From: Acetatifactor sp.
GTDB taxonomy: Bacteria; Bacillota; Clostridia; Lachnospirales; Lachnospiraceae
Assembly (NCBI GenBank): GCA_045615205.1
Contig: JAZLEI010000021.1
Span: forward strand, 13,511 to 77,510
Direction: 5' to 3'
DNA length: 64,000 nt
Below the pieces are notes generated by a model. The model did no database searches. It saw only the letters and a program-made list of their open reading frames with translations, and was not told where the DNA came from. Position numbers and translations under genes: made by a program. Positions 36,546 through 52,082 of the stretch are shown piece by piece; the stretch's first letter is position 1; each line of letters starts with the position of its first letter.

Positions 36546-37278
36546 AAAACGAAGAAAAAGATGGGGAGGAGTACTGATAATATTGCTGTTAATAGCAGCA
36601 GTTCTAGGTGTGATTTATTATATTATCAGTACTTATTCCATTAAAAATGTATATGTGGAAGGAAATGTTCATTACACAGAGGACGAAATAAAGGATATTG
36701 TAATGGAAGGCCCTTTGGGGAATAATTCCTTGTATTTGTCCATGAAATACAGCAATAAGGGTGTGGAAAATATCCCTTTTGTAGATGTAATGGATGTAGT
36801 GGTAGTGTCGCCGGATACTATAAAAATCGTAGTGTATGAAAAAGCTCTGGCAGGGTATATAGAGTTTATGGACAGCTATATGTATTTTGACAGGGACGGT
36901 TATATGGTAGAAACCTCCAATGTAAAAACCTTGGGAGTGCCCCAGATAGCGGGATTGCAGTTTGAGCATGTGATGCTGGGAGAAAAGATACCCTTAGAGG
37001 ATGATAGTGTATTCGAAAGTATTATGAATATCACGAATCTGTTGGACAAGTACGAGTTGTTGGTGGACAAGATTTACTTTCAGGCGGATATGGATATTAT
37101 TCTGTATTTTGAAGATGTGAGAGTGAATTTGGGCAAAGGAAACAGCTTGGAAGAAAAGCTCATGGTATTGCCAACCTTTTTGGCAAATCTGGAAGGTAAG
37201 AAAGGTGTATTGCACATGGAAGACTATACAGAGGACGGAGGGATGACGGTTTTTGATGTAGATAAAACAGAAGAATAA
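36538..37278 (+). CDS. ftsQ: Cell-division protein FtsQ/DivIB
   Basis: Basic N-terminus, one TM helix and a POTRA-like region. Positioned just upstream of ftsZ. Confidence 0.7.
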   Translation: MYKKRRKRWGGVLIILLLIAAVLGVIYYIISTYSIKNVYVEGNVHYTEDEIKDIVMEGPLGNNSLYLSMKYSNKGVENIPFVDVMDVVVVSPDTIKIVVYEKALAGYIEFMDSYMYFDRDGYMVETSNVKTLGVPQIAGLQFEHVMLGEKIPLEDDSVFESIMNITNLLDKYELLVDKIYFQADMDIILYFEDVRVNLGKGNSLEEKLMVLPTFLANLEGKKGVLHMEDYTEDGGMTVFDVDKTEE

Positions 37279-37379
37279 AAATATTTTTCAATTTCCACAA
37301 AAAAGAGGTTGATTAATTTAAGAAATAATTATATGATAAACTATATGGAATTTATTCGGAATAGAAGGAGGACAAACCC

Positions 37380-38555
37380 TTGCTCGAAGTGAAGACAAAT
37401 GACGCGCAGGCAGCCGCAAAGATTATTGTAGTTGGTGTAGGCGGTGCCGGAAATAATGCTGTAAATAGAATGGTGGATGAAAGAATAGATGGTGTGGAGT
37501 TTATCGGTGTGAATACTGATAAGCAGGCACTTCAGTTATGTAAGGCTCCTAAGCTGATTCAGATTGGTGAGAAGCTGACCAAGGGACTTGGTGCAGGTGC
37601 AAAGCCTGAAATCGGCGAGAAGGCTGCAGAAGAGAGTACAGAAGAAATTCAGGAAGCATTAAAGGGTGCGGATATGGTATTCGTTACCTGCGGTATGGGT
37701 GGCGGAACCGGCACCGGTGCTGCTCCCGTTGTAGCAAAAATCGCAAAAGAAATGGATATTTTGACAGTAGGTGTCGTAACAAAGCCTTTCCGTTTTGAGG
37801 CAAAGACCCGTATGCAGAATGCTTTGGGCGGTATCAGCAAAATCAAGGAATTTGTAGATACCTTAATCGTAATCCCGAATGACAAGCTGTTGGAAATCGT
37901 TGATCGCAGAACGACTATGCCGGAAGCTTTGAAGAAGGCTGATGAAGTGTTACAGCAGTCCGTACAGGGTATTACTGATTTGATTAACAGACCTGCCATC
38001 ATTAATCTGGACTTCGCAGACGTTCAGACTGTAATGAAGGATAAGGGTATTGCACATATTGGTATTGGTGAAGGTAAGGGTGATGATAAGGCTTTGGAAG
38101 CTGTGAAGATGGCAGTAGAGTCACCATTATTGGAAACTACTATTTCCGGTGCTACAGATGTGATTGTAAACGTATCTGGTGATATTACTTTAGCAGATGC
38201 ATCCGATGCAGTAAGCTATGTTCAGGAGCTGTGTGGAGATGAGGTAAATATTATCTTTGGTGCATTGTACGATTCTAACAAGAATGGTAATTGTACCATT
38301 ACTGTTATTGCAACCGGTATTGAGGATTCTGCAAATGCAGCTGCTCAGAGCAGATTGGGTGGCGGATTTACTTACAAGACTCCTACCGCAACACCGGGAT
38401 TTGGTACCACTGTAACCCCTAGTGTAAAGCCTATTACTCCGGTTCCTGTTGCTCCGGTAGAGCCTGTTGTAGGAATTAACAAGCCGGTAGATATTCAGAG
38501 TACTGTAAAGGCAAAAACCTTGAATATTCCTGATTTCCTGACCAGAAAGCAGTAA
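37380..38555 (+). CDS. ftsZ: Cell-division GTPase FtsZ
   Basis: Tubulin signature [11 protein letters not shown] and NTD motif. TTG start 7 nt after GGAGGA. Confidence 0.97.
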
Positions 38556-38593
38556 ATAGGAAATGATATCATAATTTCATAGAATGTTAAGTG

Positions 38594-38636
38594 ACAGCCA
38601 TACTTGTAAGGGTATGGCTGTTTTTGTCGTTTTTTT
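38594..38636 (+). terminator. Intrinsic terminator after ftsZ
   Basis: Stem ACAGCCATAC / GTATGGCTGT followed by TTTTGTCGTTTTTTT. Confidence 0.85.
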
Positions 38637-38667
38637 CAGACAAGTATTAAAAAGCCGCTTTGCGTTT

Positions 38668-38700
38668 TTGACAAAATTCCTAAGGGAATATGAGTATAAT
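38668..38700 (+). promoter_or_regulatory. Candidate spoIIG-type promoter with over-long spacer
   Basis: Perfect TTGACA (38668-38673) and perfect TATAAT (38695-38700) separated by 21 nt, about 35 nt upstream of spoIIGA. Confidence 0.5.
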
Positions 38701-38735
38701 AAGGTTGTTTGGAGGCTTGATTAAGGAGGTGGAAA

Positions 38736-39533
38736 ATGTATTATGAAATCTATGCAGACAGCCTCTTTTTCTTGCAGTTTGTTTTGAACTTATATGTGCT
38801 GGGGGCTGTAAATCATATGTATTATCACGGGGCATCCGGTAAGCGTATTGTTTTGGGAGCAGTTTTGGGAGCAGTTATTTATATACTTCCCTTTTGTTTC
38901 CCTATCAAGCTGATGTATGGAATGATTTTGGGTTTTTGCCTGTCAATGCTGGGGATGAGTTGGATTACCTTTCGGGTGGTGGAGTGGAGACGGTTAAGCG
39001 GAGTGTTGGAAAAAATGCTGTTGACTACTTTGTTGATGGGGAGCTTATTAATCTTTGTGCTTAAGATGTTGCCGCCCGGACAGGAGAGTTGTTTGGGCGT
39101 GATGGGGGTATTGCTTATGGGGGCAGTTTGTTATGGAGTGGTCCGCAGACTGACAGGGCACAGAGAGGAAGAGAAGCCTTTTTGTAAGGTCTATCTGCAG
39201 GAAGAGAATGCATGTCTGGAGGTGAATGCACTTTTGGATACCGGAAACAGCCTCGTAGAACCCATCAGTGGAAAGCCGGTTGCTGTGTTATCGGAGAGCA
39301 TGTTTCAGAAATTGTATTCTGCCAAGGAACCGCAGGGCTATCGGGTAATACCCTATCGAAGTGTAGGAAAGCAAAAAGGGATACTGGATGCATATCTACT
39401 AAAAGGCATAATCATAGAATATCAGGGAGTAAAAAAGGAGTGCAAAGAGGTGTATGTGGCAAGGAGTAAGGAATTGCTTGCAGAAGCCGGTGATTACCAG
39501 ATGGTTTTGAACCCCAGAGTATTGAAGGAATAG
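38736..39533 (+). CDS. spoIIGA: Sigma-E processing peptidase SpoIIGA
   Basis: Five N-terminal TM helices and aspartic-protease motif LLDTGN. Immediately precedes sigE. Confidence 0.85.
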   Translation: MYYEIYADSLFFLQFVLNLYVLGAVNHMYYHGASGKRIVLGAVLGAVIYILPFCFPIKLMYGMILGFCLSMLGMSWITFRVVEWRRLSGVLEKMLLTTLLMGSLLIFVLKMLPPGQESCLGVMGVLLMGAVCYGVVRRLTGHREEEKPFCKVYLQEENACLEVNALLDTGNSLVEPISGKPVAVLSESMFQKLYSAKEPQGYRVIPYRSVGKQKGILDAYLLKGIIIEYQGVKKECKEVYVARSKELLAEAGDYQMVLNPRVLKE

Positions 39534-39545
39534 GGAGGTAAAAGG

Positions 39546-40292
39546 GTGATGATGTTACTGAAAATTATACTGCCGGGAGGCTTGCGTGGGAAACTGCAAA
39601 TCAGAGAGCGTTATTTCGATATCCGCAAGCAGGGAGATATTTTTTACATAGGCGGAACAGAGGTGCTTCCGCCGCCGCTTACAGGTGAACAGGAAAATCA
39701 GGTGTTGTTGAAACTGGGAACAGACCAGGAGGAAGAAGCCAAGGCTGTATTGATAGAGCATAATCTGCGATTGGTAGTGTATATTGCCAAAAAATTTGAT
39801 AATACAGGAGTGGGAATGGAGGACTTGATTTCCATTGGAACCATCGGCCTCATAAAAGCAATTAATACGTTTAATCCGGAGAAAAATATCAAGCTGGCAA
39901 CTTATGCTTCCCGTTGTATAGAGAATGAAATATTGATGTTCTTACGTCGAAACAGCAAGACCAGAATGGAGGTATCCATTGATGAACCCTTGAATGTGGA
40001 TTGGGATGGGAATGAGCTGCTTTTATCAGATATTTTGGGAACAGATGAGGATATTATTTATCGGGGCATTGAGGATGAGGTAGAACGCAGACTTTTGTTA
40101 AAGGCTGTGAATAAATTGTCGGAAAGAGAAAAGACTATTATACGGCTACGGTTTGGTCTGGGAACACCTGGTGGTACAGAGATGACCCAGAAAGAGGTGG
40201 CTACCCTATTGGGAATATCCCAGTCCTATATTTCCCGTTTGGAGAAAAAAATCATGAAACAATTGAAACGGGAGATGAGCAATGTGGTTTAA
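39546..40292 (+). CDS. sigE: Sporulation sigma factor E (pro-sigma-E)
   Basis: N-terminal pro-sequence, region 2 ([12 protein letters not shown]) and region 4 HTH ([22 protein letters not shown]). Confidence 0.9.
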
Positions 40293-40372
40293 TTCTTTCC
40301 TGACTTGCTCTTTTTCGGGAAATAGGGTATAGTATATACTATGTAATTCAGGAACAGAAAAGAGGAAGAATA

Positions 40373-40681
40373 GTGATTGTACGGGAAGATATATTATCTA
40401 TGGAATATTTGAAAAAGACAGAATATACCGGCTGTCATCAGGGAATGCGTTATCGCTTAGAGGGTGTTGCAACAGAAGAAGGAAAACAGTTGAAGGTCAC
40501 GGTATGGCCGGAGCCATTTAACTTTTTTACTACTCCTGAGGAGCAGAAGCAAAGTGCACTGTTTGGGTTTGATGAGGATGGCGTGGTGGATGCCATAGCC
40601 TGGATGAATAATCGATTGTTCGAAGACAAGGATAAATGGGAGCGTGCCGGGGAGAACTGGTCAAGCTATTCAGGAAGGTAA
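40373..40681 (+). CDS. Hypothetical protein (about 100 aa)
   Basis: ORF with coding-like composition. No motif recognised. Start uncertain (GTG 40373 or internal ATG). Confidence 0.45.
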   Translation: MIVREDILSMEYLKKTEYTGCHQGMRYRLEGVATEEGKQLKVTVWPEPFNFFTTPEEQKQSALFGFDEDGVVDAIAWMNNRLFEDKDKWERAGENWSSYSGR

Positions 40682-40684
40682 GAG

Positions 40685-41218
40685 ATGGGTAAGTACTTGG
40701 TGCAGGATTTGCTGGAAACCGTTCGCTTTGTTCCTTGGGGAATATTGGTTGCTTTTGGCGTATGGATTGTAGTACAGTTGATAAATGGATATCGAAGGAA
40801 GCAGGGAAAAGTACCCTGTAGAGTGGTGCCTGTAGTATGCTTTTTCTCATACTTAGGATTGTTGTTGATTATTACCTATTGGTCCAGGGAGCGTGGGGAG
40901 GTGTCCATAATCGATTGGCAGATAGGATCCACTCTTCGTATTAATAACAGAAACAATGCCCTTTGGATAGAAAATATTTTGTTGTTTGTACCCTATGGGT
41001 TTGGTTTCGCATGGTGTCGAAAGAAAAGGGAAGTATTTCTACAAGGGGTGTGTTTGGGGTTCTTTACCAGCTTGTGTATCGAGATACTGCAGTTGGTGAC
41101 CGGAAGAGGAGTATTTCAGATTGATGATATTATCACTAATACAGTTGGATGTATATTGGGTATACTTACGTTTCAGATACTGGCCAAGCTGCTTTCTAAA
41201 GTAGCTGAAAAGAAATAA
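40685..41218 (+). CDS. VanZ-like membrane protein
   Basis: Four to five TM helices with VanZ-type pattern (NILLFVPYGF, IEILQLVTGRGVFQIDDIITNT). Confidence 0.7.
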   Translation: MGKYLVQDLLETVRFVPWGILVAFGVWIVVQLINGYRRKQGKVPCRVVPVVCFFSYLGLLLIITYWSRERGEVSIIDWQIGSTLRINNRNNALWIENILLFVPYGFGFAWCRKKREVFLQGVCLGFFTSLCIEILQLVTGRGVFQIDDIITNTVGCILGILTFQILAKLLSKVAEKK

Positions 41219-41257
41219 ATGATACAATATGTACGCTGTTTTATAGTTAAATGAAAA

Positions 41258-41301
41258 CAAAAAGTTATGGTATAACTGATGCGGTATACCATAACTTTTT
41301 T
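41258..41301. terminator. Bidirectional terminator between the VanZ-like gene (+) and the RHH gene (-)
   Basis: About 15-bp stem AAAAGTTATGGTATA / TATACCATAACTTTT, flanked by A-run and T-run. Confidence 0.8.
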
Positions 41302-41315
41302 GTTTAAATTCTCAA

Positions 41316-41334
41316 AATCCGACAAATCGAAAAA
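41316..41334 (+). repeat. 19-nt motif AATCCGACnnATCGAAAAA, copy A
   Basis: 17 of 19 positions identical to copy B at 44121-44139, in the same orientation. Confidence 0.6.
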
Positions 41335-41347
41335 AATAATAATAAAA

Positions 41348-41530
41348 TTAGGTTATTATAGAGTCATCATTATCCTTTTGCCGTTGTTTTAGGGTTTCTA
41401 AGCCTAAACGAATCAAATCTAAGGTTGCCTGAGAACGGCTGTTGTATCGCATGTTAAAACGATAGTCATCAATTTCTTTTAATGTGTCTTCATCAACTGT
41501 AATACAGTAACGTGGTTTTGTTGTTGGCAT
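41348..41530 (-). CDS. Ribbon-helix-helix (CopG/Arc-like) protein, 60 aa
   Basis: Translation is MPTTKPRYCITVDEDTLKEIDDYRF...ATLDLIRLGLETL, a beta-strand/helix/helix pattern. GAGGTG lies 6 nt upstream of ATG 41530. The 128-aa track ORF is an upstream extension. Confidence 0.6.
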   Translation of the reverse strand: MPTTKPRYCITVDEDTLKEIDDYRFNMRYNSRSQATLDLIRLGLETLKQRQKDNDDSIIT

Positions 41531-41549
41531 ATTTTTCACCTCATTGTTT

Positions 41550-41578
41550 ATTATAACGTAGGTCGGCATGACTGTAAA
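41550..41578 (-). promoter_or_regulatory. Candidate sigmaA promoter for the minus-strand RHH gene
   Basis: On the minus strand: TTTACA (rc of 41573-41578) - 17 nt - TATAAT (rc of 41550-41555). Confidence 0.55.
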
Positions 41579-41597
41579 CAAAAAAATGAAAAACAAG

Positions 41598-41626
41598 TTG
41601 ACAAAGGTAATTGCTAAGAATATAAT
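41598..41626 (+). promoter_or_regulatory. Consensus sigmaA promoter for the small-protein operon
   Basis: Perfect TTGACA (41598-41603) - 17 nt - perfect TATAAT (41621-41626). Confidence 0.7.
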
Positions 41627-41635
41627 AAGCATAGA

Positions 41636-41652
41636 GTTCATCAGTGATGAAC
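41636..41652. promoter_or_regulatory. Perfect palindrome GTTCATCAgTGATGAAC (candidate operator)
   Basis: 8+1+8 perfect inverted repeat starting 10 nt downstream of the consensus -10. Confidence 0.55.
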
Positions 41653-41741
41653 CATTCAAAAAACAGTAATTGAATTTTATAAGATACAGGGGAAATGTGT
41701 AAGGGTGTGACATACTTCGGAAGAAAGGAGCCATAGATACG

Positions 41742-41903
41742 ATGAAAAAGATAATGGTGTCTTTGCCATTTGAATTGGAATGCGAGCTTGAAAAATTGAA
41801 AAGGGAACATTTCCATGATAAATCCTATGAAGAAATGTACAAAAGTATTATTCTGTTGGGGTTGGAAAAGTCTAAAGACACTATTGTACCAAGTGAACCA
41901 TAA
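41742..41903 (+). CDS. Small RHH-like protein, 53 aa (not in ORF track)
   Basis: Translation is MKKIMVSLPFELECELEKLKREHFHDKSYEEMYKSIILLGLEKSKDTIVPSEP. GAAAGGAG lies upstream. The C-terminal helix (ILLGLEK) resembles that of the divergent RHH (LIRLGLET). Confidence 0.5.
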   Translation: MKKIMVSLPFELECELEKLKREHFHDKSYEEMYKSIILLGLEKSKDTIVPSEP

Positions 41904-41933
41904 ATGTAATGAAAATACAAAGGAGGAAAAACA

Positions 41934-42215
41934 ATGTGCCCATACTTCTATAGTGCATACACAGGAAAAAAGCATGAGACACCACTACCATTGTGCAGGG
42001 CGAATAACATGGATACAATTACGGATTATAATGTGGAAAATGTATGCAAAAACAATTGTATGAGTTGTTATATATACCGACGGGAAAGTGGAGGTAAGCC
42101 ACCGGAGAGGATACCGCAATACAACAATAATGCTAAGTCTTCCGGAGGTTGTGGAACAGTGTTTGTAGTTTTGGGTATTATTGTCATTGTGACTAAGTGT
42201 CTTGGTCTATGGTAA
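41934..42215 (+). CDS. Cys-rich small protein with C-terminal TM helix, 93 aa
   Basis: AAAGGAGG lies 8 nt upstream. Seven Cys, including CKNNCMSC (CX3CX2C). Hydrophobic tail GCGTVFVVLGIIVIVTKCLGLW. Confidence 0.55.
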   Translation: MCPYFYSAYTGKKHETPLPLCRANNMDTITDYNVENVCKNNCMSCYIYRRESGGKPPERIPQYNNNAKSSGGCGTVFVVLGIIVIVTKCLGLW

Positions 42216-42279
42216 TGATGGCATTAATATAAAGGTGTAATGGAAATATCATAATATAAAAACAAAGGAGGAAATAATT

Positions 42280-42456
42280 ATGGCAACATCATGCCCAAAT
42301 TTAAGAGTAAAAACAGGAATTATGGTGACTTATAAGGATATCCATTGTGCCTGTACACAAAACAAAATTACGGGACAGTATATGCAAGCTACTTGCAAAG
42401 GTGATTACAAGCAGTGTAGTGCTTATAAAAAATATGGTATTGTAAATGGAAAATAG
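42280..42456 (+). CDS. Cys-rich small soluble protein, 58 aa (not in ORF track), paralogous to the N-domain of the 93-aa protein
   Basis: AAAGGAGG lies 8 nt upstream. Translation is MATSCPNLRVKTGIMVTYKDIHCACTQNKITGQYMQATCKGDYKQCSAYKKYGIVNGK. It shares the CP..TG..C..IT..Y..CK..C..Y spacing with the preceding ORF. Confidence 0.5.
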   Translation: MATSCPNLRVKTGIMVTYKDIHCACTQNKITGQYMQATCKGDYKQCSAYKKYGIVNGK

Positions 42457-42474
42457 TAGTAGAGAGGTACAATT

Positions 42475-42684
42475 ATGGCAGGAAAACCAAAGCATCAGGA
42501 TTTAATGAATGCAATAGATCGTATGGTTTCTAATGAACAGCCGTATCAAAAATCTGCACCTTCATATTCACAGCAGCCTTCATATCCTCAGAATTCTTCG
42601 CAGCGAAAAGGTGGTTTCTTTTCGGCAATAATCGGGGCTATACTGATGCTTGTATTTGCTTGGGCTGTTTTAAATTATACTTAA
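42475..42684 (+). CDS. Small protein with Q/S/P-rich linker and C-terminal TM helix, 69 aa
   Basis: AGAGAGG lies upstream. C-terminal FFSAIIGAILMLVFAWAVL. Last gene before the terminator. Confidence 0.5.
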   Translation: MAGKPKHQDLMNAIDRMVSNEQPYQKSAPSYSQQPSYPQNSSQRKGGFFSAIIGAILMLVFAWAVLNYT

Positions 42685-42700
42685 TTAGATAGTAGGACAG

Positions 42701-42739
42701 AAAAGTTATTGTAGTGACTAGGCTGCAATAACTTTTTTT
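42701..42739 (+). terminator. Intrinsic terminator after the small-protein operon
   Basis: Stem AAAAGTTATTGTAG / CTGCAATAACTTTT (one G-U pair) followed by a T-run. Confidence 0.8.
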
Positions 42740-42753
42740 ATAGTAGAGGTTTA

Positions 42754-44067
42754 ATGACTATGGGAATTCGTTCCTATATAATAAGATTAAAAATAATGAT
42801 TGCCGGTGGGATTGTTATGGGAGATGAGGTATTAGTGACAGAGACATTGAAAGCAAAACAGGGTATTTTGAATGAATTCCTAAGCGTGTTTGATAAGTTT
42901 GGAGCAGAGAAAAAGCATAAAGCAGACAGTACCTATGGATTCCTGTCAGATAACCTGTTGGTGCATAGTATAGTGGTATCACCTAATTTAAAAAGTGGCT
43001 TGTCGAGCTTGAAGACTTTTTTCGCTACGGAAGCAATGGAAATATACAAAGGTAAGCAATCGTCCAAGATATCCTATAAAAATATTCAGGAGCATTTGGA
43101 AGGCAGCAACAATAAAAAATATAGATTTTCCTATGAGGTATTAGAGAAAATCATGCAGAAAGAAATCAATAAAGATGCTTTTCTAAATGAAGCACGAATC
43201 ATGCGAAGTAACACGGACATGTGTGAAATGATAAAAGAGTATGATGATTGGCTGCCTTATATATTGTTGGATCAGCTTCGCAAAACTGCATGGGAAATGT
43301 TGGATAAATATAATCAGATTTGTATAGAGGCTGAGGAGGATACGGAAAATAGAAAAAAGCTGTTGTATTATCAATTTACGCAGGCAGTGGCCATGTTTGA
43401 AATGTTTATGATAGAGTACGTGAAGAAACCGCTTAGAAAATGTATCCAAAAGGAACTGGTGTTGATAGAGAAAATCAAGGAAACAGCGGAGAAGCTTAAG
43501 ATTTGGGAGGAGAGTATACAGGAAAAGGTTGTTAGGATTTCCGGGCAGATGGAAGACAAGTATCATATGGGAAGTGAGATACAACATGACGTAATGACGT
43601 TGGTGGCAGAATATAATCTATTTGTTTCAGAAAACATAGAGGAGTTGACAGGAAACACTAATAAGATTAGCATACTGCATTTAGTAGAGGCAGAATTTGG
43701 GGTAGAGCTATGTGCCATGCTTCATTTGCTGTTAGTATTGGAAGCAGTAAATGTATATGAAGAAAATATGGATTCGCCGCAGATAGGGGCGAATATGGAT
43801 TGTGCATTTATGGGAGATTATGATAAATTTTTTGTATCCTTTGGGCGTACGAATGAGAATAAGAGAGCAGATTATCGAAGAGTGAATACCTATTTAGATA
43901 ACCTTTTATCAGAATATGCAGGCAAACCATATGATGTTAAAAAAACGGTAATTGCTTTTTTACAAGAATTAAGTACAGTAAGGACGAGTGGTGAAACGGA
44001 GCAATTTTATGGATTTTTGTGTGCGTTAGCATATCCGGTATATCGAAAGCTTGGAGGAGAAATATGA
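42754..44067 (+). CDS. Hypothetical protein, up to 437 aa, predicted mostly helical, no recognised motif
   Basis: Long ORF with coding-like composition. The likely start is internal: ATG 42817 (MGDEVL) lies 8 nt after GGTGGG, and a TATAAT at 42777-42782 falls inside the first codons of the track ORF. Confidence 0.6.
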   Translation: MTMGIRSYIIRLKIMIAGGIVMGDEVLVTETLKAKQGILNEFLSVFDKFGAEKKHKADSTYGFLSDNLLVHSIVVSPNLKSGLSSLKTFFATEAMEIYKGKQSSKISYKNIQEHLEGSNNKKYRFSYEVLEKIMQKEINKDAFLNEARIMRSNTDMCEMIKEYDDWLPYILLDQLRKTAWEMLDKYNQICIEAEEDTENRKKLLYYQFTQAVAMFEMFMIEYVKKPLRKCIQKELVLIEKIKETAEKLKIWEESIQEKVVRISGQMEDKYHMGSEIQHDVMTLVAEYNLFVSENIEELTGNTNKISILHLVEAEFGVELCAMLHLLLVLEAVNVYEENMDSPQIGANMDCAFMGDYDKFFVSFGRTNENKRADYRRVNTYLDNLLSEYAGKPYDVKKTVIAFLQELSTVRTSGETEQFYGFLCALAYPVYRKLGGEI

Positions 44068-44114
44068 AAATAGTTCCAGCCCGGAAGGAAGAATGTGAAG
44101 ATTTTTAGAAGTTT

Positions 44115-44123
44115 TGATATAAT
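44115..44123 (+). promoter_or_regulatory. Extended -10 element TGaTATAAT
   Basis: TGnTATAAT match. Motif copy B begins inside it, and a strong terminator lies about 40 nt downstream. Confidence 0.35.
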
Positions 44124-44139
44124 CCGACCGATCGAAAAA
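44121..44139 (+). repeat. 19-nt motif AATCCGACnnATCGAAAAA, copy B
   Basis: 17 of 19 positions identical to copy A at 41316-41334. Confidence 0.6.
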
Positions 44140-44160
44140 TATTGATAAATGCAATGTGTT

Positions 44161-44207
44161 ATCGTAGAAACGCAAGGGAAACCGATGTGCTTCTACGATT
44201 TTTTTTT
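44161..44207 (+). terminator. Intrinsic terminator between the 437-aa and 529-aa genes
   Basis: Stem ATCGTAGAAaC / GcTTCTACGAT with a 17-nt loop, followed by 8 T. Confidence 0.75.
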
Positions 44208-44299
44208 GAGGAAAACATGTTTGGTGTCACAATCTATCGTTGGAATAAGAGTTATGGGGAAAGTGAGACGAATAAAATAAGTATGAGGAGGAAGTGTAA

Positions 44300-45889
44300 A
44301 TGTTAAAAGAGTGGTTCTTGGTAAGCAAACATGATGTACTAGGGGAGAAAAGGTATGCTCTGGCAGGGCTGATATATGGGAGCAGTGTTCTGGAGGATGG
44401 TGAATTTATTTCTACGCCTACGATTCAGAAGGCGATTGAGGACAAGGAGAAGGAGTGTATAGTGTTTTTGTCCGGAAATAGTCAATATATCTGCTATTGG
44501 AAAGATTGTGCATTTGAAAAAGGTGATACCGCAAGGTATCTGGAAGCTTTTTATGATTATAGGGAAAAGTATGTAGATCGTAAGCTATGGCAGTTACAGG
44601 ATAATAGTATATTGATACTGTTAAGCGGGGACTCTCCGAATTATTTTAAGCATGCCTTTTATAAAAGGCATGATGAATTGAGAAGAATAGAGGCGATGGA
44701 TGATATTAAGAGAGGCTATAAAATAATTTCCCCAGCACAGACCGAGGAGGAGAAAGAGGTAGTCATTGACCTTCGCTATTGTATTAGGGGGGAAAATGAA
44801 TTAAAGATGTTTTATGCTGATATACCGGAGGATATGGAGCTTTATGTGGAAAATCAGGGGAATGCACCATTGCATGTTGTCTGCGGTTTAGAAAGCTATA
44901 CGATAGAGGAAAAGGAGCGTGTTGCTATTTGTGTCAGAGATACTGCAGATTATATGGAATTTCTAAAAGATTGCGTGAATAGTACACAATTGCCAAGAAA
45001 GAAGGAACTCTTCAGTAAGGAAAAGGTATTTCAGGAAATGATGGAAGATGCACATAATGGTGTGAAAAAGAAGTACATGATTATTTTAGAAGGGGATGAT
45101 ATGAAAGAACTGCATTCGAAGGATGACAAAATAGTGGTATGTGCTTCCGGAGGGATTGCTTGCGCATTGTTGCTGGGAGAATATACATTGGCAAAGAAAC
45201 TGGCAGAGGCGGGGAGTGAGGTGCGTGTAGAGGAAACTATCAAGATAGTAATATATGATGATAAAAAAGGAAATATACAATACTCCTTGAATACACAATT
45301 GATGGAGTGTTTGGCAGATGATAAAGAGATGCCGGATGATGTATATGAAATTCTTTGGGGAAAAGCAAAAACTACGAATGCTCAGATGTTTAAAGGGATG
45401 TTGACATTAAAAATACGGTCTATGGTAGGCTGTAATAGCGAAATCATGTTATATAATGTCAAGCGTCTGCAAAAGGAATGGGAAGAAGCAGCTGATGAAT
45501 TGTTAAGGGCATGGATGAAATATTATTTTAATACTTATGCTGCAAACGAATATAGAATATGGGCAAAGGTATTTGAGGCCTTTCCGGATAAGCATCAACT
45601 TATCTTAGAGGAACTGCTGGCAAAGTATTTTAGTGTGAAGGGGATATATGGTATGGTATATCCTTCGGATGAGGGGCGTGTAAGGTTTTGTGCTTATTGG
45701 AAATTGTTTCAACACATTCTCGGTGAAGTGGCAAGGAAAAAATATGCTGTGTTCATGATACACTTCATGCTGAAAAGAGTATTCAGTATATCTGAAGAGA
45801 TGGAATGGTTTTGGGTACTGGTTCTGGCAGATATCAAGGATTTTGAAGATGAGGAAGTAGAGAAAAGAAATGAATGCGTACAGATGTAG
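44300..45889 (+). CDS. Hypothetical protein, 529 aa, no recognised motif
   Basis: GAGGAGG lies 8 nt upstream of ATG 44300. Long ORF with coding-like composition. Ends at TAG 45887-45889. Confidence 0.65.
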   Translation: MLKEWFLVSKHDVLGEKRYALAGLIYGSSVLEDGEFISTPTIQKAIEDKEKECIVFLSGNSQYICYWKDCAFEKGDTARYLEAFYDYREKYVDRKLWQLQDNSILILLSGDSPNYFKHAFYKRHDELRRIEAMDDIKRGYKIISPAQTEEEKEVVIDLRYCIRGENELKMFYADIPEDMELYVENQGNAPLHVVCGLESYTIEEKERVAICVRDTADYMEFLKDCVNSTQLPRKKELFSKEKVFQEMMEDAHNGVKKKYMIILEGDDMKELHSKDDKIVVCASGGIACALLLGEYTLAKKLAEAGSEVRVEETIKIVIYDDKKGNIQYSLNTQLMECLADDKEMPDDVYEILWGKAKTTNAQMFKGMLTLKIRSMVGCNSEIMLYNVKRLQKEWEEAADELLRAWMKYYFNTYAANEYRIWAKVFEAFPDKHQLILEELLAKYFSVKGIYGMVYPSDEGRVRFCAYWKLFQHILGEVARKKYAVFMIHFMLKRVFSISEEMEWFWVLVLADIKDFEDEEVEKRNECVQM

Positions 45890-46078
45890 CTGGATAAAAA
45901 GGTATTACGTCTGGGAAACTGGCTGAGAATATCATATACAGGATTTATCCCGGTACAATATTTGGATTATTATTTGCAGAAGCTGGAAGCGGAGAAGGAA
46001 CAGGATATCATTCCGGTATTTCGGGCGTTGAAGTATGGTATTTTGGCAGAAAGGGACAGAGCTATTGAAGAGACATAA
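45890..46078 (+). other. 62-codon open extension in frame with the 529-aa ORF after its TAG stop
   Basis: The same frame continues LDKKVLRLGNWLRISYTGFIPVQYLDYYLQKLEAEKEQDIIPVFRALKYGILAERDRAIEET to TAA 46076-46078. There is no convincing independent RBS or start. Confidence 0.35.
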
Positions 46079-46091
46079 CACTCTTCAATAG
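46062..46091. terminator. Hairpin between the convergent 529-aa(+extension) gene and sigG
   Basis: 11-bp perfect stem CTATTGAAGAG / CTCTTCAATAG with an 8-nt loop. Overlaps the TAA of the extension and lies 19 nt beyond the sigG stop. Confidence 0.6.
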
Positions 46092-46109
46092 CTCCGTCTT
46101 TATGTTGGG

Positions 46110-46889
46110 TTATGCGGATAGATAATTGCGCATCATTTTCAGGGCGTTCTTCTCCAGTCTGGAGACCTGTGCTTGGGAGATGCCGATGATATCTGCCACC
46201 TCCATCTGGGTCTTTCCTTCGAAAAAACGTAAATGGATAATGTCACGTTCCCTTTCGCCCAGACGTTTCAAGGCTTCGTTTAGGGATAGGTGTTCTACCC
46301 AGTTTTCTTCTTTGTTCTTTTTGTCGCTGATTTGATCCATCACATAGAGAGTATCGCCCGCATCGGTATAAATGGGTTCATAAAGACTCATAGGGTTTTG
46401 GATGGCGTCCATGGCATAAACAATATCTTCCTTGGAAATACCGATTTCTGTGGCGATTTCTTCTATGGTGGGCTCCTTTAAGTTTTTGCGAGTAAGGACC
46501 TCACGGGTATAGATGGCCTTGTAAGCAGTATCTTTTAAAGAACGGGAGACGCGGATGGAATTGTTGTCTCGCAGATAACGTCTGATTTCTCCGATAATCA
46601 TGGGTACGGCATAGGTGGAGAATTTGACGTTCAGGCTGGAATCAAAGTTGTCGATGGCTTTGATTAAGCCGATGCAGCCAATTTGAAACAAATCGTCTAC
46701 ATTTTCATTGCTGGAAGAGAAGCGTTTGATAATGCTTAAGACAAGTCTGAGATTTCCTTCAATATATCTTTCCCGAGCGGCAATGTCGCCTTCTTCAATC
46801 ATGGCGAATAATTTATCCTTTTCTTCTTGCTTTAATAGGGGGAGTTTGGCGGTATTCACGCCGCAGATTTCTACCTTACCTAATGACAT
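46110..46889 (-). CDS. sigG: Sporulation sigma factor G
   Basis: MSLGKVEICGVNTAKLPLL..., DDLFQIGCIGLIKAIDNFD, VKFSTYAVPMIIGEIRRYLRDNNSIRVSRS and GKTQMEVADIIGISQAQVSRLEK closely match my recollection of B. subtilis SigG. GGAGG lies upstream of ATG 46889. The 377-aa track ORF is an upstream extension. Confidence 0.95.
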   Translation of the reverse strand: MSLGKVEICGVNTAKLPLLKQEEKDKLFAMIEEGDIAARERYIEGNLRLVLSIIKRFSSSNENVDDLFQIGCIGLIKAIDNFDSSLNVKFSTYAVPMIIGEIRRYLRDNNSIRVSRSLKDTAYKAIYTREVLTRKNLKEPTIEEIATEIGISKEDIVYAMDAIQNPMSLYEPIYTDAGDTLYVMDQISDKKNKEENWVEHLSLNEALKRLGERERDIIHLRFFEGKTQMEVADIIGISQAQVSRLEKNALKMMRNYLSA

Positions 46890-46950
46890 GATGCTGGCCT
46901 CCTGAATAAGTAGTTGTCCGTTGAATGTTTCTCCTTGGTAAGTATAGGAA

Positions 46951-46980
46951 TAGTATGAGCCACCTTTTGAAAAGTTATTC
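46951..46980 (-). promoter_or_regulatory. Forespore-type (sigmaG/sigmaF-like) promoter upstream of sigG
   Basis: On the minus strand: GAATA (rc of 46976-46980) - 18 nt - CATACTA (rc of 46951-46957). This fits the B. subtilis sigmaG consensus GHATR-N18-CATXHTA. Confidence 0.55.
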
Positions 46981-47016
46981 ATATAATAATACAAAGTGGT
47001 AATGGGTGGATGAGCG

Positions 47017-47253
47017 ATGATCTTGTATTCGGATTTGAAAAATAAGGAAGTCATTAATATCAGAGATTGCAGGTGTTTGGGGAGGATAACCAACTTGGAA
47101 CTGGACGAGTGCAATGGTTGTATTTGTAAGATTTTTGTGAGTGATTGCAGAAGCTTTTTTAGTTTGTTTAAGACAGATACAGAAATTGCAATTCCTTTTA
47201 AGGATATCCGGCAAATCGGTCCTGATATAATATTGGTTGACATAAACTGCTAA
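47017..47253 (+). CDS. YlmC/YmxH-family PRC-barrel sporulation protein
   Basis: 78 aa. SDLKNKEVINIRDCRCLGRITNLELDECNGCICKIFV...IPFKDIRQIGPDIILV follows the YlmC/YmxH pattern. Confidence 0.85.
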   Translation: MILYSDLKNKEVINIRDCRCLGRITNLELDECNGCICKIFVSDCRSFFSLFKTDTEIAIPFKDIRQIGPDIILVDINC

Positions 47254-47343
47254 ATAATTTATAATATTTTCAAAATAGACAGAATTTTCTTACATTATCA
47301 ATTGAAGCAGCGTAAAGATGCGCAGATAGGAGCAAATGCATAT

Positions 47344-47793
47344 ATGAAATGTCCATTTTGTAATCATGAGAACACCAGAGTAATTGATTCCAGACCGGCA
47401 GAGGATAATAACTCCATCCGTCGTCGTCGTGTATGTGATGAGTGTGGGAAGCGTTTTACTACTTATGAAAAAATCGAGACCATTCCTTTGATTATTATTA
47501 AAAAGGATGATAATCGTGAGACTTATGACCGTTCCAAGATAGAAGCGGGAGTGTTACGTGCATGTCATAAGAGACCGGTGAGTGCACAGGCGATTACAAA
47601 TATTGTGGATGAAGTAGAAAACGAAATCTTCAACATGGAAGAGAAGGAAATCTCCAGCCAGATAATCGGTGAGCTGGTGATGAATAAATTAAAAGATTTG
47701 GATGCGGTTGCTTATGTACGTTTTGCATCTGTATATCGCGAATTTAAGGATGTAAATACTTTTATGGATGAGTTAAAAAAGGTATTGCAGTAG
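47344..47793 (+). CDS. nrdR: Transcriptional repressor NrdR
   Basis: Zinc ribbon MKCPFCNHENTRVIDSR...CDECGKRFTTYE plus an ATP-cone domain. Confidence 0.95.
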   Translation: MKCPFCNHENTRVIDSRPAEDNNSIRRRRVCDECGKRFTTYEKIETIPLIIIKKDDNRETYDRSKIEAGVLRACHKRPVSAQAITNIVDEVENEIFNMEEKEISSQIIGELVMNKLKDLDAVAYVRFASVYREFKDVNTFMDELKKVLQ

Positions 47794-47859
47794 AGACTGG
47801 CGGCAGGACAGATGTCCTGCCGTGTTTTTGAGAATTTTTCGAAAAGCGAGGAAGAGGAT

Positions 47860-48357
47860 ATGTTAAAAACATTTTATCCGGATAATGAAGTTGATTCTAC
47901 CTATGAAATTGATTTCGAAGCATTGTATGAGAAGGGATACCGTGGTATTATTTTTGATGTGGACAATACACTGGTGCCTCACGGAGCACCGGCTACTGAG
48001 CAGGCAAAGGCGTTTTTTGAGCGTTTGAGGGAGATTGGTTATGCGACCATGCTTTTGTCAAACAATAAAGAACCCAGGGTAAAAGGCTTTGCGGATAGTG
48101 TGGGTTCTCCCTATATTTTCAAGGCAAATAAGCCATCAAAAGCAGGTTATGAGAAAGCTATGGAGCAAATGGGTACCGTGAAGGAAACGACACTTTTCGT
48201 AGGGGATCAGCTTTTTACAGATGTTTGGGGAGCCAAGAGGACGGGGATTATGACGTATCTGGTAAAGCCCATTCATCCCAAGGAAGAAATTCAGATTGTG
48301 TTGAAACGCAGATTGGAATGGTTTGTATTGTATTTTTATCATAAGCAAAAGAAATAA
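47860..48357 (+). CDS. yqeG: YqeG-family HAD-IIIA phosphatase
   Basis: HAD motif I FDVDNTL, LSNN and GDQLFTD. Start set at ATG 47860. Confidence 0.8.
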   Translation: MLKTFYPDNEVDSTYEIDFEALYEKGYRGIIFDVDNTLVPHGAPATEQAKAFFERLREIGYATMLLSNNKEPRVKGFADSVGSPYIFKANKPSKAGYEKAMEQMGTVKETTLFVGDQLFTDVWGAKRTGIMTYLVKPIHPKEEIQIVLKRRLEWFVLYFYHKQKK

Positions 48358-48386
48358 GAAAACAGGAAAAAGGTGGCGACTGTAAA

Positions 48387-49253
48387 ATGGTTTATAATGG
48401 ACATACGAGGACCTGTGGACTGATAGGCAATCCGGTGGAGCATACCTTGTCTCCCTTGTTGCAGAATTATCTGGCAGAGGAAACCGGAACCAATATGGTA
48501 TATGTTCCGTTTCATGTGGAGGAAGGCAGAATCGGAGAGGCAGTCAAGGGAGCCTGGGCGCTAAACTTACTGGGCTGTAATGTGACGGTTCCTTATAAAA
48601 GTGATGTGCTTCCTTATGTGAAGGAGTTGGACGGGCTGGCTGAGAGGATTGGTGCCGTGAATACTCTGGTGCGTATGGAGGATGGTTTTAAGGGCTACAA
48701 TACGGATATGCCGGGGCTTTACCGTGCCATGCAAAGTGATGGTGTGGAAATAGTGGGCAGAGAATGTGTGATTTTAGGCGCCGGAGGAGTAGCCAGAGCA
48801 GTGGCTGTGATGCTTTTGGACAAAGGAGCTTCCAAGGTTTACATATTGAACAGAACGTTGCAAAAAGCAGTAGTAATCGCAGAAGAAGTAAATGAGATGG
48901 CAGGTTATGCTTTTGTGGAGGCAATGGCATTAATGGATTATGAGAAGCTGCCAAAACGACAATTCATAGTGATACAAGCTACTAATATAGGTATGCATCC
49001 CAAGGTGGATGAGGTGGTTATCTCGGATAAAGCCTTTTATGAAAGGGTGGAGGTTGGTTATGACTTGATCTTTAACCCGGGTAATACCCGTTTCATGCAA
49101 CTTACGGAAGCAGCCGGCGCAAGAGCCTATAACGGAGCGAAGATGCTGGTGTATCAGGGGATTATTGCTTTTGAACTTTGGAATAAACTATCGATTTCGG
49201 AAGAAACAGCAAAAATAGTATGTGATTTGGTGACAGAGGCGTTGAAGGTATGA
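48387..49253 (+). CDS. aroE: Shikimate dehydrogenase
   Basis: Motifs GNPVEHTLSP, NVTVPYK and GAGGVARAV. Confidence 0.9.
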   Translation: MVYNGHTRTCGLIGNPVEHTLSPLLQNYLAEETGTNMVYVPFHVEEGRIGEAVKGAWALNLLGCNVTVPYKSDVLPYVKELDGLAERIGAVNTLVRMEDGFKGYNTDMPGLYRAMQSDGVEIVGRECVILGAGGVARAVAVMLLDKGASKVYILNRTLQKAVVIAEEVNEMAGYAFVEAMALMDYEKLPKRQFIVIQATNIGMHPKVDEVVISDKAFYERVEVGYDLIFNPGNTRFMQLTEAAGARAYNGAKMLVYQGIIAFELWNKLSISEETAKIVCDLVTEALKV

Positions 49254-50209
49254 AAAAGAACAATATCGTATTAATTGGTTTTATGGGAAGCGGAAAAACA
49301 ACCATAGGTATTCGCTTATCCTATCGTATGCGCAGAGCGATAGAGGATACGGATAAATTGATTGAAAGAAGACTGGGAAAGCGTATTTCAGAGGTGTTTG
49401 CCCAGGAAGGAGAAGCTTTTTTTCGACTGCAGGAAACAGCTCTTTTGAAGGATCTAATAGAAAAGAGAAATCATCAGATTATTTCGGTAGGGGGCGGAAC
49501 TCCTGTCAGAGAGGAAAACAGAGAGCTACTGAAAAAGTTGGGCACAGTAGTGTATTTTCGTGCGAAACCGGAAACAATTTATGAAAGAGTAAAAGCGGAT
49601 ACGACACGACCTCTTTTGCAATGTGAGGATCCTTTGCAGAAAATCAGGGATTTGCTGCAACAGCGCAAAGAAGCCTACGAAAGCTGTGCCGATATTATCA
49701 TCGATGTGGATGGTTTGTCCATGGATGAGGTGGCAGAGCAGGTGATAAATGCAAGCTCAAAGGAAGGAAAGAGAAAAAAGAAACTGTTGGTGATTAATGG
49801 TCCGAATTTGAATTTTTTGGGCATTCGTGACAAGAATATCTACGGAGCACAGGATTATCAGTATTTGATGGACTTGATACAAAAGAAGGCAAAAGCAAGC
49901 GGATGTAAGATTGACTGCTTCCAGAGTAATTATGAAGGAGCGATTATTGACCGGATACAGGCTGCCTATTTTGATGGTACAGATGGAATTGTAATTAATC
50001 CGGGTGCTTATACTCATTATAGCTATGCGATCCATGATGCTTTAGAAACCATACGGGTACCAAAGGTAGAAATACATATTTCCAATATTCAGGAAAGAGA
50101 AGAGTTTCGTAAGATTTCCGTGACCGCACCGGCCTGTGATAAGCAGATCTATGGGCAGGGATTGGACGGATATTTGCAGGCAATTGACTTTATCTTGAAT
50201 AATTCGTAG
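49250..50209 (+). CDS. Bifunctional shikimate kinase / type II 3-dehydroquinate dehydratase (fusion)
   Basis: N-terminal AroK P-loop GFMGSGKTT and GGG motif. C-terminal AroQ motifs LVINGPNLNFLGIRDKNIYG and HISNIQEREEFR. Overlaps aroE by 4 nt. Confidence 0.85.
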   Translation: MKKNNIVLIGFMGSGKTTIGIRLSYRMRRAIEDTDKLIERRLGKRISEVFAQEGEAFFRLQETALLKDLIEKRNHQIISVGGGTPVREENRELLKKLGTVVYFRAKPETIYERVKADTTRPLLQCEDPLQKIRDLLQQRKEAYESCADIIIDVDGLSMDEVAEQVINASSKEGKRKKKLLVINGPNLNFLGIRDKNIYGAQDYQYLMDLIQKKAKASGCKIDCFQSNYEGAIIDRIQAAYFDGTDGIVINPGAYTHYSYAIHDALETIRVPKVEIHISNIQEREEFRKISVTAPACDKQIYGQGLDGYLQAIDFILNNS

Positions 50210-50299
50210 TTTTTTTTGAAAAAATAGTTGAAATATGATTGCTTTTAGTATAAACTAGAAAAGAATTATAACGTGATAAATATTTAGGAGGAATATACT

Positions 50300-50857
50300 A
50301 TGATTTCAGCAGGCGATTTCAGAAATGGTATTACTATTGAAATGGACAATGGTATTTACCAGATTATTGAATTCCAGCATGTTAAGCCGGGAAAGGGAGC
50401 AGCTTTCGTTAGAACCAAGCTGAAAAATATCGTTAACGGAGGCGTTATCGAAAAGAGTTTCAGACCTCAGGAGAAGTTCCCGCAGGCGCGTATTGATAGA
50501 AAAGATATGCAGTACTTGTATTCAGATGGTGATTTATATCACTTCATGGATGTTGAAAGCTATGACCAGATTGCACTCAACGATGAAACCGTTGGTGATG
50601 CATTGAAGTTCGTTAAGGAAAATGATATGTGTAAGGTTTGCTCACACAATGGCAATGTATTTGCCATTGAGCCTCCTTTGTTCGTAGAACTTGAGGTTAC
50701 TGAGACAGAACCCGGCTTTAAGGGAGATACCGCTACAGGTGCTTCTAAGCCTGCTACCGTAGAAACCGGTGCAACCGTATCTGTTCCTTTGTTCGTTGAA
50801 ATTGGTAACAAGATTAAGATTGATACCAGAACCGGCGAATATCTTTCAAGAGTTTAA
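50300..50857 (+). CDS. efp: Elongation factor P
   Basis: [19 protein letters not shown] loop and three OB-like domains. Confidence 0.97.
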
Positions 50858-50881
50858 TAGACTGCACTATTTATGCAAAGT

Positions 50882-50913
50882 AAGACAATGGCTTTATGTC
50901 ATTGTCTTTTTTT
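50882..50913 (+). terminator. Intrinsic terminator after efp
   Basis: Stem AAGACAATG / CATTGTCTT followed by TTTTT. It lies inside the first codons of track ORF 50873. Confidence 0.8.
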
Positions 50914-50953
50914 GCGCCAAAACATCGCAACATTAAATTATGGAGGGAAGTAT

Positions 50954-51847: not shown

Positions 51848-51902
51848 GCTTAGAACTTTCATAAATTTTATAAAAAATTAGGACTTTTCCTAAAAAATCG
51901 TA

Positions 51903-51931: not shown

Positions 51932-51933
51932 AG

Positions 51934-52051: not shown

Positions 52052-52082
52052 TGTAGTTCACATTTTGTAGAAAGGTTATTTT

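Follow-up and report, generated by a model that had tools for sequence, protein, structure and literature searches.

The sporulation sigma factor genes sigE and sigG of an Acetatifactor species (Lachnospiraceae) are separated by a block of small and large genes, and the question raised by this locus is where the block came from and whether it works by itself. We have analyzed a stretch of 64,000 nucleotides of contig JAZLEI010000021.1 (assembly GCA_045615205.1), called here the window, in which a VanZ-like gene and sigG are convergent and the block (~41219-46045, ~4.83 kb) occupies the gap between them. A preliminary description, made from the sequence alone, had considered it an orphan island that makes up a self-contained accessory module. 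Our analysis leads to a different picture, in which we have moderate confidence: the island would be a horizontally acquired, trimmed fragment of an undescribed gene cluster coding for MoxR, VWA and AAA+ proteins. We favour this reading because all three ATPase and VWA genes of that cluster, the triad introduced in the next section, are missing, and because FamC, the second of the two large genes, has an amber stop 62 codons before its end.

The two large genes and the clusters of their families

The first large gene codes for p437 (42754-44067, plus strand; annotated as 437 amino acids, aa), whose family we call FamB. The true start is probably at 42817, giving a protein of 416 aa, because the homologues begin there and a promoter-like site at 42754-42782 then falls upstream. 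This protein had been taken for an orphan, which did not hold: a word-indexed search of 5.8 billion proteins gave 3 homologues at 41-49% identity and the inspection of gene context gave more, so that homologues with 34-49% identity are now found in the loci L001, L002, L019, L021 and L027 of our collection. The family had no relative in the GTDB species representatives, IMG/VR or the JGI metagenomes, and no PDB sequence-profile match. The AlphaFold (AF2) model is all-alpha with a long helical hairpin and of low confidence (predicted local distance difference test, pLDDT, of 55). Its Foldseek matches, to generic coiled-coil and helical-hairpin proteins such as Smc arms and ClyA-family toxins, had E values of at least 0.28 and were rejected as uninformative.

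The second large gene, for p529 (FamC), had been described as 529 codons plus a possible extension of 62. Both parts do belong to one gene of 592 codons (44300-46078, plus strand), which is interrupted by an in-frame TAG at 45887-45889. Alignments to homologues of 569-615 aa run colinearly through this codon and the next 62 codons, to 46039, and the homologues have L, F or I in the column of the TAG; a single TTG-to-TAG change would explain the stop. Recoding of TAG was considered and rejected, since it is an ordinary stop in this genome that ends 11 of 50 long open reading frames (ORFs). The last ~11 codons of FamC and its stop come from the conserved DNA of the sigG terminator, with the TAA (46076-46078) in the terminator loop, and therefore the insertion ends exactly at the end of FamC.

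In the word-indexed search p529 looked unique, but an exhaustive HMMER search of 1.84 billion representatives gave 37 matches, 36 of them besides p529 itself, and the orphan status fell in this case too. Among the matches five are full-length (493-615 aa), about 25 are standalone proteins (131-462 aa, mostly ~220-330) that cover residues 1-215 only, and several of ~350 aa cover residues 219-529 only. The AF2 model obtained with the 37-sequence alignment (pLDDT 88.6, predicted template modelling score 0.83) predicts a beta-rich N-domain (1-215) followed by an alpha/beta and helical-repeat C-domain. Foldseek comparison of this model with PDB and BFVD gave nothing at E<=1e-3, the best being weak ARM/ANK-like repeats, so that the structural comparisons proposed in the preliminary description, now run on both large proteins, were uninformative for p437 and without significant match for p529. 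Pfam assigned no family to any of the 37 sequences, the PDB sequence profiles of the p529 family and of the N-domain family were empty, and phage and plasmid records had no relative of p529. No catalytic, nucleotide-binding or DNA-binding motif had been recognised before in the two large proteins, and the blank results from Pfam, NCBIfam, PADLOC and PHROGs, in which neither had anything above threshold, agree with this.

The 11 standalone N-domain proteins that were aligned all share W, G, H, D, N, C, N, G and K, with a second C almost fully conserved, the motifs being GH..L.D, NT.Y.C, QDS, RYFP, EN.G and GERK. Several of these residues are lost in the fused form p529. The standalone loci include P0012-P0041, L025 (9208-9891) and L002 (1410-2186 and 2978-3736), and one member is located in a context like that of an integrative and conjugative element (ICE), with a VirD4/TraG coupling protein and ClpP.

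Elsewhere, the families of both large genes accompany a triad made up of a SpoVK/CbbX-like AAA+ protein, a DUF2201 VWA protein and a MoxR-like AAA+ protein. FamB and/or FamC were found beside the triad in L001, L019, L020, L027 and L029. The order in L001 is a small transmembrane protein, FamA (402 aa), FamB, a FamC C-domain (361 aa) and then the triad (SpoVK/CbbX-like AAA+ of 562 aa, DUF2201_N/DUF2201 VWA, MoxR-like AAA+ of 391 aa), followed by a 55-aa protein and a homologue of p58, one of the small proteins of the island. L019 has FamB, FamC (615 aa) and FamA before the triad, and L020 a FamB remnant and FamC (585 aa) before it. L029 (GCA_965356575.1) starts with an RpoD-like sigma factor (6266-7123, 285 aa, regions 1.2-4), continued by FamA, the triad and a FamC C-domain; close to its far end there is an Rpn-family nuclease/transposase-like gene, a weak match. 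A last locus, L002, has no triad: it contains FamA, two standalone N-domain proteins, a calcineurin-like phosphoesterase, FamB and a 77-aa FamC remnant, and then an opposite ribbon-helix-helix (RHH) gene and a run of genes including a Cys-rich tail-anchored protein and a fragment of a MoxR-like C-domain.

These families are connected among themselves. FamA, an alpha-solenoid, is homologous to the C-domain of FamC (hhalign probability 98.2%, E 5.5e-14), and the 258- and 252-aa proteins of L002 belong to the N-domain family (hhalign 96.9%). When the remaining unknown neighbours were compared by single-sequence hhalign with FamA, FamB, FamC and the N-domain family, no probability exceeded 40%; FamA, FamB and FamC have no Pfam or PDB match. 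Walker A and B motifs are intact in both ATPases of the triad, as is the DxSGS metal-ion-dependent adhesion site (MIDAS) of the VWA protein, while the HExxH of the metallopeptidase-like domain in the DUF2201 protein is intact in L027 only. The SpoVK-like ATPase is closest to the models of SpoVK, CbbX and EccA without reaching the cutoff of any (SpoVK 3e-52), and hhalign detected no second AAA domain in its N-terminal half (~290 aa). In PADLOC the ATPases of the related loci had generic AAA similarity only.

The window holds FamB, FamC and a p58 relative, and FamA and the triad were not found in it. Searching the whole 64 kb by tblastn with the ATPases of L001, L019 and L020 gave nothing, and there was no AAA match among the island ORFs. 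In IMG/VR we found no close relative of the triad proteins. Two unannotated human faecal contigs deposited as 'UNVERIFIED Bacteriophage sp.', L030 (MT835935.1, 2311-4498) and L031 (MT836813.1, 4059-6392), carry a pair of DUF2201-VWA and MoxR-like genes with 26-45% identity to those of the cluster, without the SpoVK-like AAA+, FamA, FamB or FamC. A literature search on DUF2201 provided nothing useful, and the cluster of FamA, FamB, FamC and the triad appears to be undescribed.

The closest described analogue are the MoxR-vWA-centric ternary conflict systems (Kaur, Burroughs, Iyer & Aravind 2020, eLife 9:e52696; PMC7159879), for which a large complex with controlled assembly and disassembly has been proposed as the source from which an effector is deployed. 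The parent cluster resembles their FtsH subtype in having a MoxR-type AAA+, a vWA protein and a second AAA+ of the classical clade, together with several alpha-helical proteins found only in the cluster, variable accessory genes and mobile positions. It differs in its third ATPase, which is single-domain and of the SpoVK/CbbX/EccA class with a novel N-domain of ~290 aa, not of the tandem FtsH type; in its vWA protein, of the DUF2201 type with a metallopeptidase-like N-domain; in the lack of any recognised effector, ubiquitin-like system or effector-associated domain, except perhaps the phosphoesterases in two loci; and in its hosts, gut Clostridia as opposed to actinobacteria, deltaproteobacteria and planctomycetes. 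By analogy, a partner would be held at the MIDAS of the VWA protein, and FamA, FamB and FamC, helical proteins that evolve fast, would form a complex put together or taken apart by the two ATPases, in which they might serve as adaptors or sensors. As to the island, the MoxR AAA+ and the vWA/MIDAS protein are both absent from the window, as is any third component (VMAP, iSTAND, tandem FtsH AAA+ or beta-propeller). It does have system-specific proteins predicted to be alpha-helical (p437, all-alpha in its model, and the helical-repeat C-domain of p529). Since every core component of the ternary systems is lacking, we have filed the island as a trimmed fragment and not as a member.

We have also found a possible cis-element shared with the related loci. 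The sequence AATCCGAC has two copies in the window, both inside the island and on the plus strand, at 41316 and 44121. The bipartite motif RTCCGAC-N30-32-TAWnnTR, confined to the island within the window, is present at 41318-41360 (plus strand), where it overlaps the 3' end of the RHH-A gene of the other strand, and at 44123-44166 (plus strand), ~135 nt upstream of the p529 start codon. The same motif is upstream of FamB on the coding strand in L019 (1085-1128) and upstream of FamC and FamB in L021 (2151-2194 and 4039-4083), one more site is found in L029 (16934-16978), and similar boxes precede genes in L027, L001 and L002. Within the window the statistics are weak (expectation 0.57, with two matches reached in 10 of 100 shuffles). 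That independent loci have it in front of homologous genes nevertheless suggests a promoter or activator site peculiar to this family of clusters. The first copy may be left over from the parent cluster as a vestigial cis-element, and its position would fit the insertion of the module of RHH and small genes between an old promoter and FamB. An att site was considered for the 22-nt direct repeat D8 and rejected: neither copy lies outside the island, and homologous genes elsewhere are preceded by the motif, which makes a regulatory role more likely.

The VanZ-sigG gap as an insertion site

The island is preceded in the plus strand by a dcw/sporulation region with ftsZ (37380-38555), spoIIGA (38736-39533) and sigE (39546-40292; 389 bits against the SigE equivalog, cutoff 339), and then by a gene for a conserved 102-aa protein, hyp102 (40373-40681), and the VanZ-like gene (40685-41218, plus strand; Pfam VanZ, 3e-20). 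On its other side are sigG (46110-46889, minus strand; 443 bits, cutoff 372), ylmC/ymxH, whose product passes its family cutoff, and nrdR. SpoIIGA stays below the curated cutoff of its own family (106.5 bits vs 209.55). A look-up of the exact SigG sequence gave no match. All eight ORFs named in the preliminary description were recovered where it had placed them.

The composition of the island is clearly foreign. Its G+C content is 0.364 versus 0.421 outside (z -4.3), and none of the 198 windows of the same length is lower, so that a difference that hand counts had left as suggestive is now significant. In tetranucleotide distance it exceeds all 99 comparison windows and is the most deviant stretch of the 64 kb. 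Syntenic loci for comparison were obtained by scanning the GTDB species representatives for the VanZ-like protein. The nearest relative, a metagenome-assembled genome (MAG) of Acetatifactor sp. (L005), has ~90% nucleotide identity over 30688-41176 and 46046-55489 and lacks the island, its order being ftsZ-spoIIGA-sigE-hyp102-VanZ, ~570 nt, and an inverted sigG-ylmC-nrdR. The more distant Lachnospiraceae MAGs L006 and L008 have no island either, and in them the stop codons of VanZ and sigG are 20-55 nt apart. Its deviant composition together with its absence from these three genomes with syntenic flanks identifies the block as a genomic island, and the earlier view of an accessory element, foreign in composition and equipped with promoter-like and terminator-like signals of its own, is borne out. 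A Logan contig of 3.9 kb (L004) has the same left junction with 99.5% identity. Proteins of the island are rare: a search among about 15 billion proteins located them on 1-3 contigs.

All the relatives that we examined have an inverted sigG after sigE-hyp102-VanZ, and therefore this arrangement is ancestral. The notion that the island splits the sigE-sigG locus has to be abandoned: the pair of hyp102 and VanZ and the inverted sigG belong to the lineage, the island merely fills a gap, and the sporulation sigma locus is intact here and arranged as in the relatives.

The two hairpins that had been said to bound the block are real and strong. The left one (41255-41305, on both strands; -21.8 / -22.4 kcal/mol, z -6.7) is a bidirectional terminator for VanZ on the plus strand and RHH-A on the minus strand. 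It belongs to the island and is missing in L005, whose homology stops at 41176. The right one (46052-46101, on both strands; -28.7 kcal/mol, z -9.1) is the sigG terminator, part of the conserved flank and outside the island; homology with L005 restarts at 46046 and the junction is sharp, with identity leaping to 94% at this terminator. An Rfam scan of 40200-47400 gave no match. On the left side, the nucleotide identity to L005 drops gradually through VanZ, above all in its 3' half (from 0.89 to 0.59 between 40700 and 41235), and the VanZ protein is just 76% identical, versus 96-99% for sigE, hyp102 and sigG; the island may have brought the 3' part of VanZ with it.

The content of this site varies among Acetatifactor-like Lachnospiraceae. 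The gap of L005 holds another insert, a 167-aa ORF (10532-11065) with weak GNAT/RimI-like similarity below family cutoffs, and the content thus differs even between genomes at ~90% nucleotide identity. In L026, L027 and L028, found as the closest long-contig relatives of the L001 VWA protein and belonging to another Lachnospiraceae, a 17-kb block is located in the same VanZ-sigG site (in L027 between VanZ, 1227-1748, and sigG, 19004-19783, minus strand). SigE, SigG and VanZ of this lineage are 85%, 86% and 46% identical to those of the window. The block starts with MoxR/DUF58/transglutaminase genes, PadR and a gene of the FtsW/RodA/SpoVE family, continues with the triad (SpoVK-like AAA+, DUF2201 and MoxR-like), FamA and three unknown proteins, and ends with FamB (34% identical to p437), a phosphoesterase and a 98-aa protein adjoining sigG. 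The site is therefore occupied by nothing (L006, L008), a GNAT-like ORF (L005), our island or the 17-kb block (L026-L028).

The preliminary description had proposed that the same block at this position in all relatives, with core-like composition, would indicate a conserved, lineage-specific sporulation locus. A related and larger cluster is indeed present at the same site in L026-L028, but L005, L006 and L008 have no such genes. FamB similarity and genome relatedness are discordant, p437 being 49% identical to L001, 41% to L002 (a locus of ~32% G+C) and 34% to L027, and the genes of the cluster are lower in G+C than their flanks in L027 and L021. Related clusters are also found at unrelated sites, beside GH79/beta-galactosidase genes, plsX-acpP and dnaJ. 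Because the FamB similarities ignore genome relatedness, and because the cluster is missing from L005, L006 and L008 and its relatives are at unrelated sites, we take the VanZ-sigG gap to be a shared hot spot of insertion, where related cargo arrived on more than one occasion, and not a conserved sporulation locus. Vertical inheritance with losses of a locus expressed during sporulation is accordingly improbable in our judgement, even if the vicinity of the L026-L028 cluster to the FtsW/RodA/SpoVE-family gene, the third ATPase being nearest to the SpoVK model (below its cutoff) and the apparently spore-forming nature of all the hosts, which are Clostridia, would speak for it. Small Cys-rich proteins like those of the island are also common in spore coats. 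Besides the distribution and the foreign composition just described, this alternative is opposed by L029, where the cluster is headed by its own RpoD-like sigma factor, by the clearest promoters of the island, which are of sigma-A type, and by regular-expression scans upstream of p437 and p529, in which no full SigE, SigK, SigF or SigG consensus was found.

Neither integrase, transposase nor phage structural gene was found among the island ORFs by ORF and family searches, as had been stated before, and no flanking direct repeats or att-like repeats were found around the island. The sole tRNA is at 51963, 6 kb away. The cluster may have been transferred by recombination through the highly conserved flanks, and our guess for the island is an insertion by homologous recombination across the conserved sigE and sigG sides. 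It resembles strain-specific islands at hot spots (e.g., defence islands) in its foreign composition, presence/absence polymorphism and variable cargo, and differs from them in that no mobility gene, att repeats or PADLOC-detected defence gene are seen here (PADLOC-DB 2.0 on nine proteins gave no match). With the intervening elements of sporulation genes, such as skin in sigK, it shares the presence of foreign DNA in the neighbourhood of a sporulation sigma factor; unlike them it is intergenic, splits no gene, has no recombinase and gives no sign of developmental excision.

The regulatory switch and the small proteins

The left part of the island has the organization of a regulatory switch. 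RHH-A (41348-41530, minus strand) is a 60-aa RHH repressor of phage type that matches phrog_4738 ('transcriptional repressor', 1.4e-14) and the N-terminal RHH region of NikR (3e-6, below whole-protein cutoffs). It is 62% identical over 47 residues to gp47 of the Clostridioides phage phiCD27, of the same size and annotated as 'transcriptional repressor', which sits between two annotated anti-repressor genes and near repressor, metalloprotease and integrase genes. A sigma-70-type promoter for RHH-A (41578-41550, minus strand; TTTACA-17-TATAAT, 11/12) is back to back with another one for the operon of small proteins (41598-41626, plus strand; TTGACA-17-TATAAT, 12/12). Starting 10 nt after the -10 box of the plus strand there is a perfect 8-1-8 palindrome, GTTCATCA-G-TGATGAAC (41636-41652), which is a candidate operator for one of the small regulators.

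The first gene of the operon codes for RHH-B (53 aa, 41742-41903, plus strand). Two divergent RHH regulators had been announced: the profiles demonstrate this only for RHH-A, on the minus strand. The sole profile match of RHH-B, phrog_38821 (2.3e-6), is a family without assigned function, searches of Pfam, NCBIfam and PDB gave nothing, and its similarity to the DUF6364-like RHH protein of L002 is weak (E 0.11). An RHH fold is plausible for it.

RHH-A is similar to the phage RHH repressors (phrog_4738, phiCD27 gp47) in its size and in its place at a divergent promoter pair, and differs from them in that no phage genes surround it and in that its probable target is deduced from the divergent promoters and the palindrome. 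This similarity to a protein of a phage regulatory region, the PHROG match of RHH-B, the divergent promoters that resemble a phage switch and the standalone N-domain relative in the ICE-like context with VirD4/TraG might be taken as signs of a prophage or phage satellite reduced to its lysogeny switch and some moron genes. We give little credence to such a remnant: no integrase, structural, replication or lysis genes are there, 50,697 phage records and IMG/VR yielded no relatives of p437, p529 or p93 (nor the phage records any of RHH-B), and att-like repeats are missing.

RHH-B is followed by three small genes, all on the plus strand. The protein p93 (41934-42215) has a Cys-rich N-terminal part including C-x3-C-x2-C and a C-terminal hydrophobic helix, and its copy in L004 is 98.9% identical. 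The small Cys-rich p58 (42280-42456) is related to the 87-aa protein that closes the L001 cluster (E 1.7e-8 to 1.7e-6, 35% identity), with both the N- and the C-terminal ends conserved. The third, p69 (42475-42684), has a polar N-terminal part and a C-terminal transmembrane helix, with only sub-threshold noise in Pfam; an 18-nt tandem repeat in its gene (42559-42594) encodes PSYSQQ/PSYPQN, a PSY(S/P)Q repeat. A terminator hairpin (42699-42738, plus strand; -19.1 kcal/mol, z -5.0) follows the operon. The proposal that p93 and p58 are paralogous has mixed backing. Their protein similarity is marginal (E 0.06), but the 23 nt before each gene (41907-41929 and 42252-42274), including the AGGAGG Shine-Dalgarno (SD) sequence, are 87% identical, which gives some support to an origin by tandem duplication.

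Like p437 and p529, the proteins p93, p58 and p69 had nothing above threshold in Pfam, NCBIfam, PADLOC and PHROGs, and for all the island ORFs the matches in these libraries were limited to RHH-A and one PHROG of unknown function. No toxin family was found directly downstream of the RHH gene, and p93, p58 and p69 match none. Several small Cys-rich ORFs with strong SD sequences ahead of large unknown proteins, and the conserved ends of p58 and its L001 homologue, could recall a cluster of the bacteriocin type or of ribosomally synthesized and post-translationally modified peptides, with the Cys-rich proteins as precursors and p437 and p529 as novel modifying or export proteins. We regard this as very improbable. 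There is no radical-SAM, LanB/C/M, YcaO, peptidase or ABC-transporter signature, the confident model of p529 predicts a beta-domain and helical repeats with no match to an enzyme-like fold, and the L001 homologue of p58 follows ATPase genes and not tailoring enzymes.

The switch could also belong to a self-contained working module of anti-phage defence, toxin/immunity or abortive infection, in which it would control the small proteins as effector and immunity proteins, and p437 and p529 would act alone. The island has its own consensus promoters, a candidate palindromic operator and terminators, 7 of its 8 ORFs are intact, and low G+C and location at a hot spot are typical of defence islands; L002 also has, beside FamB, a divergent RHH gene on the minus strand and a run of genes with a Cys-rich tail-anchored protein. 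Nevertheless, this explanation appears unlikely. No effector, toxin or immunity family was matched in PADLOC, Pfam or NCBIfam, FamB and FamC normally go with three ATPase/VWA genes that are missing from the window, FamC is cut by a stop codon, and the small proteins except p58 have no detectable relatives in the related loci.

Origin and significance of the island

Taken as a trimmed fragment, the island would have originated when ~4.83 kb of foreign DNA (~41219-46045) entered the terminator gap where the VanZ-like gene and sigG converge. This DNA would consist of two modules: a phage-type RHH repressor with the divergent operon that codes for the putative regulator RHH-B and for three small Cys-rich or tail-anchored proteins, and FamB plus FamC, cut from a cluster that had also FamA and the triad. 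Such an island may be either decaying or dependent on a triad elsewhere in the genome, and its intact parts, the RHH switch, the small membrane and Cys-rich proteins and p437, may function alone. Several points weigh against this reading. The gene for p437 and all the small genes are intact, with good promoters and SD sequences, and the island may be functional as it is. The FamC gene was seen on one contig, so the TAG could be a sequencing error. The search for the triad covered the 64-kb window, and a triad located elsewhere in the genome may act in trans. The association with the triad comes from five contigs, a small and possibly biased sample. No effector domain was recognised in any version of the cluster, for which a conflict role is suggested by analogy. 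Finally, no integrase, transposase or flanking direct repeats are at hand to explain the insertion.

There is also a tentative alternative, of rather low probability. FamA, FamB and FamC could be specificity or adaptor subunits of an undescribed multi-ATPase machine of gut Clostridia, a new class of conflict (anti-phage or anti-MGE) or sporulation-linked remodelling system that would enter the VanZ-sigG hot spot repeatedly, and the island would be a minimal version, controlled by a phage-type RHH switch, that uses a triad elsewhere in the genome. This machine would comprise the SpoVK-like AAA+, the DUF2201 VWA protein and the MoxR-like AAA+, possibly with its own sigma factor and the shared RTCCGAC...TAWnnTR element.

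As regards this genome the outcome is modest, an island that is probably an incomplete copy and likely a relic, beside an intact sporulation sigma locus. In a wider sense, FamA, FamB and FamC are three linked, uncharacterised protein families, and FamC has a confident model without any significant Foldseek match. They mark a rare cluster of gut Lachnospiraceae with two AAA+ ATPases and a VWA protein, to which the nearest described systems, those of the MoxR-vWA ternary type, are themselves experimentally untried and described mainly outside Firmicutes. The VanZ-sigG gap could serve as a landmark for accessory systems in hard-to-culture bacteria.

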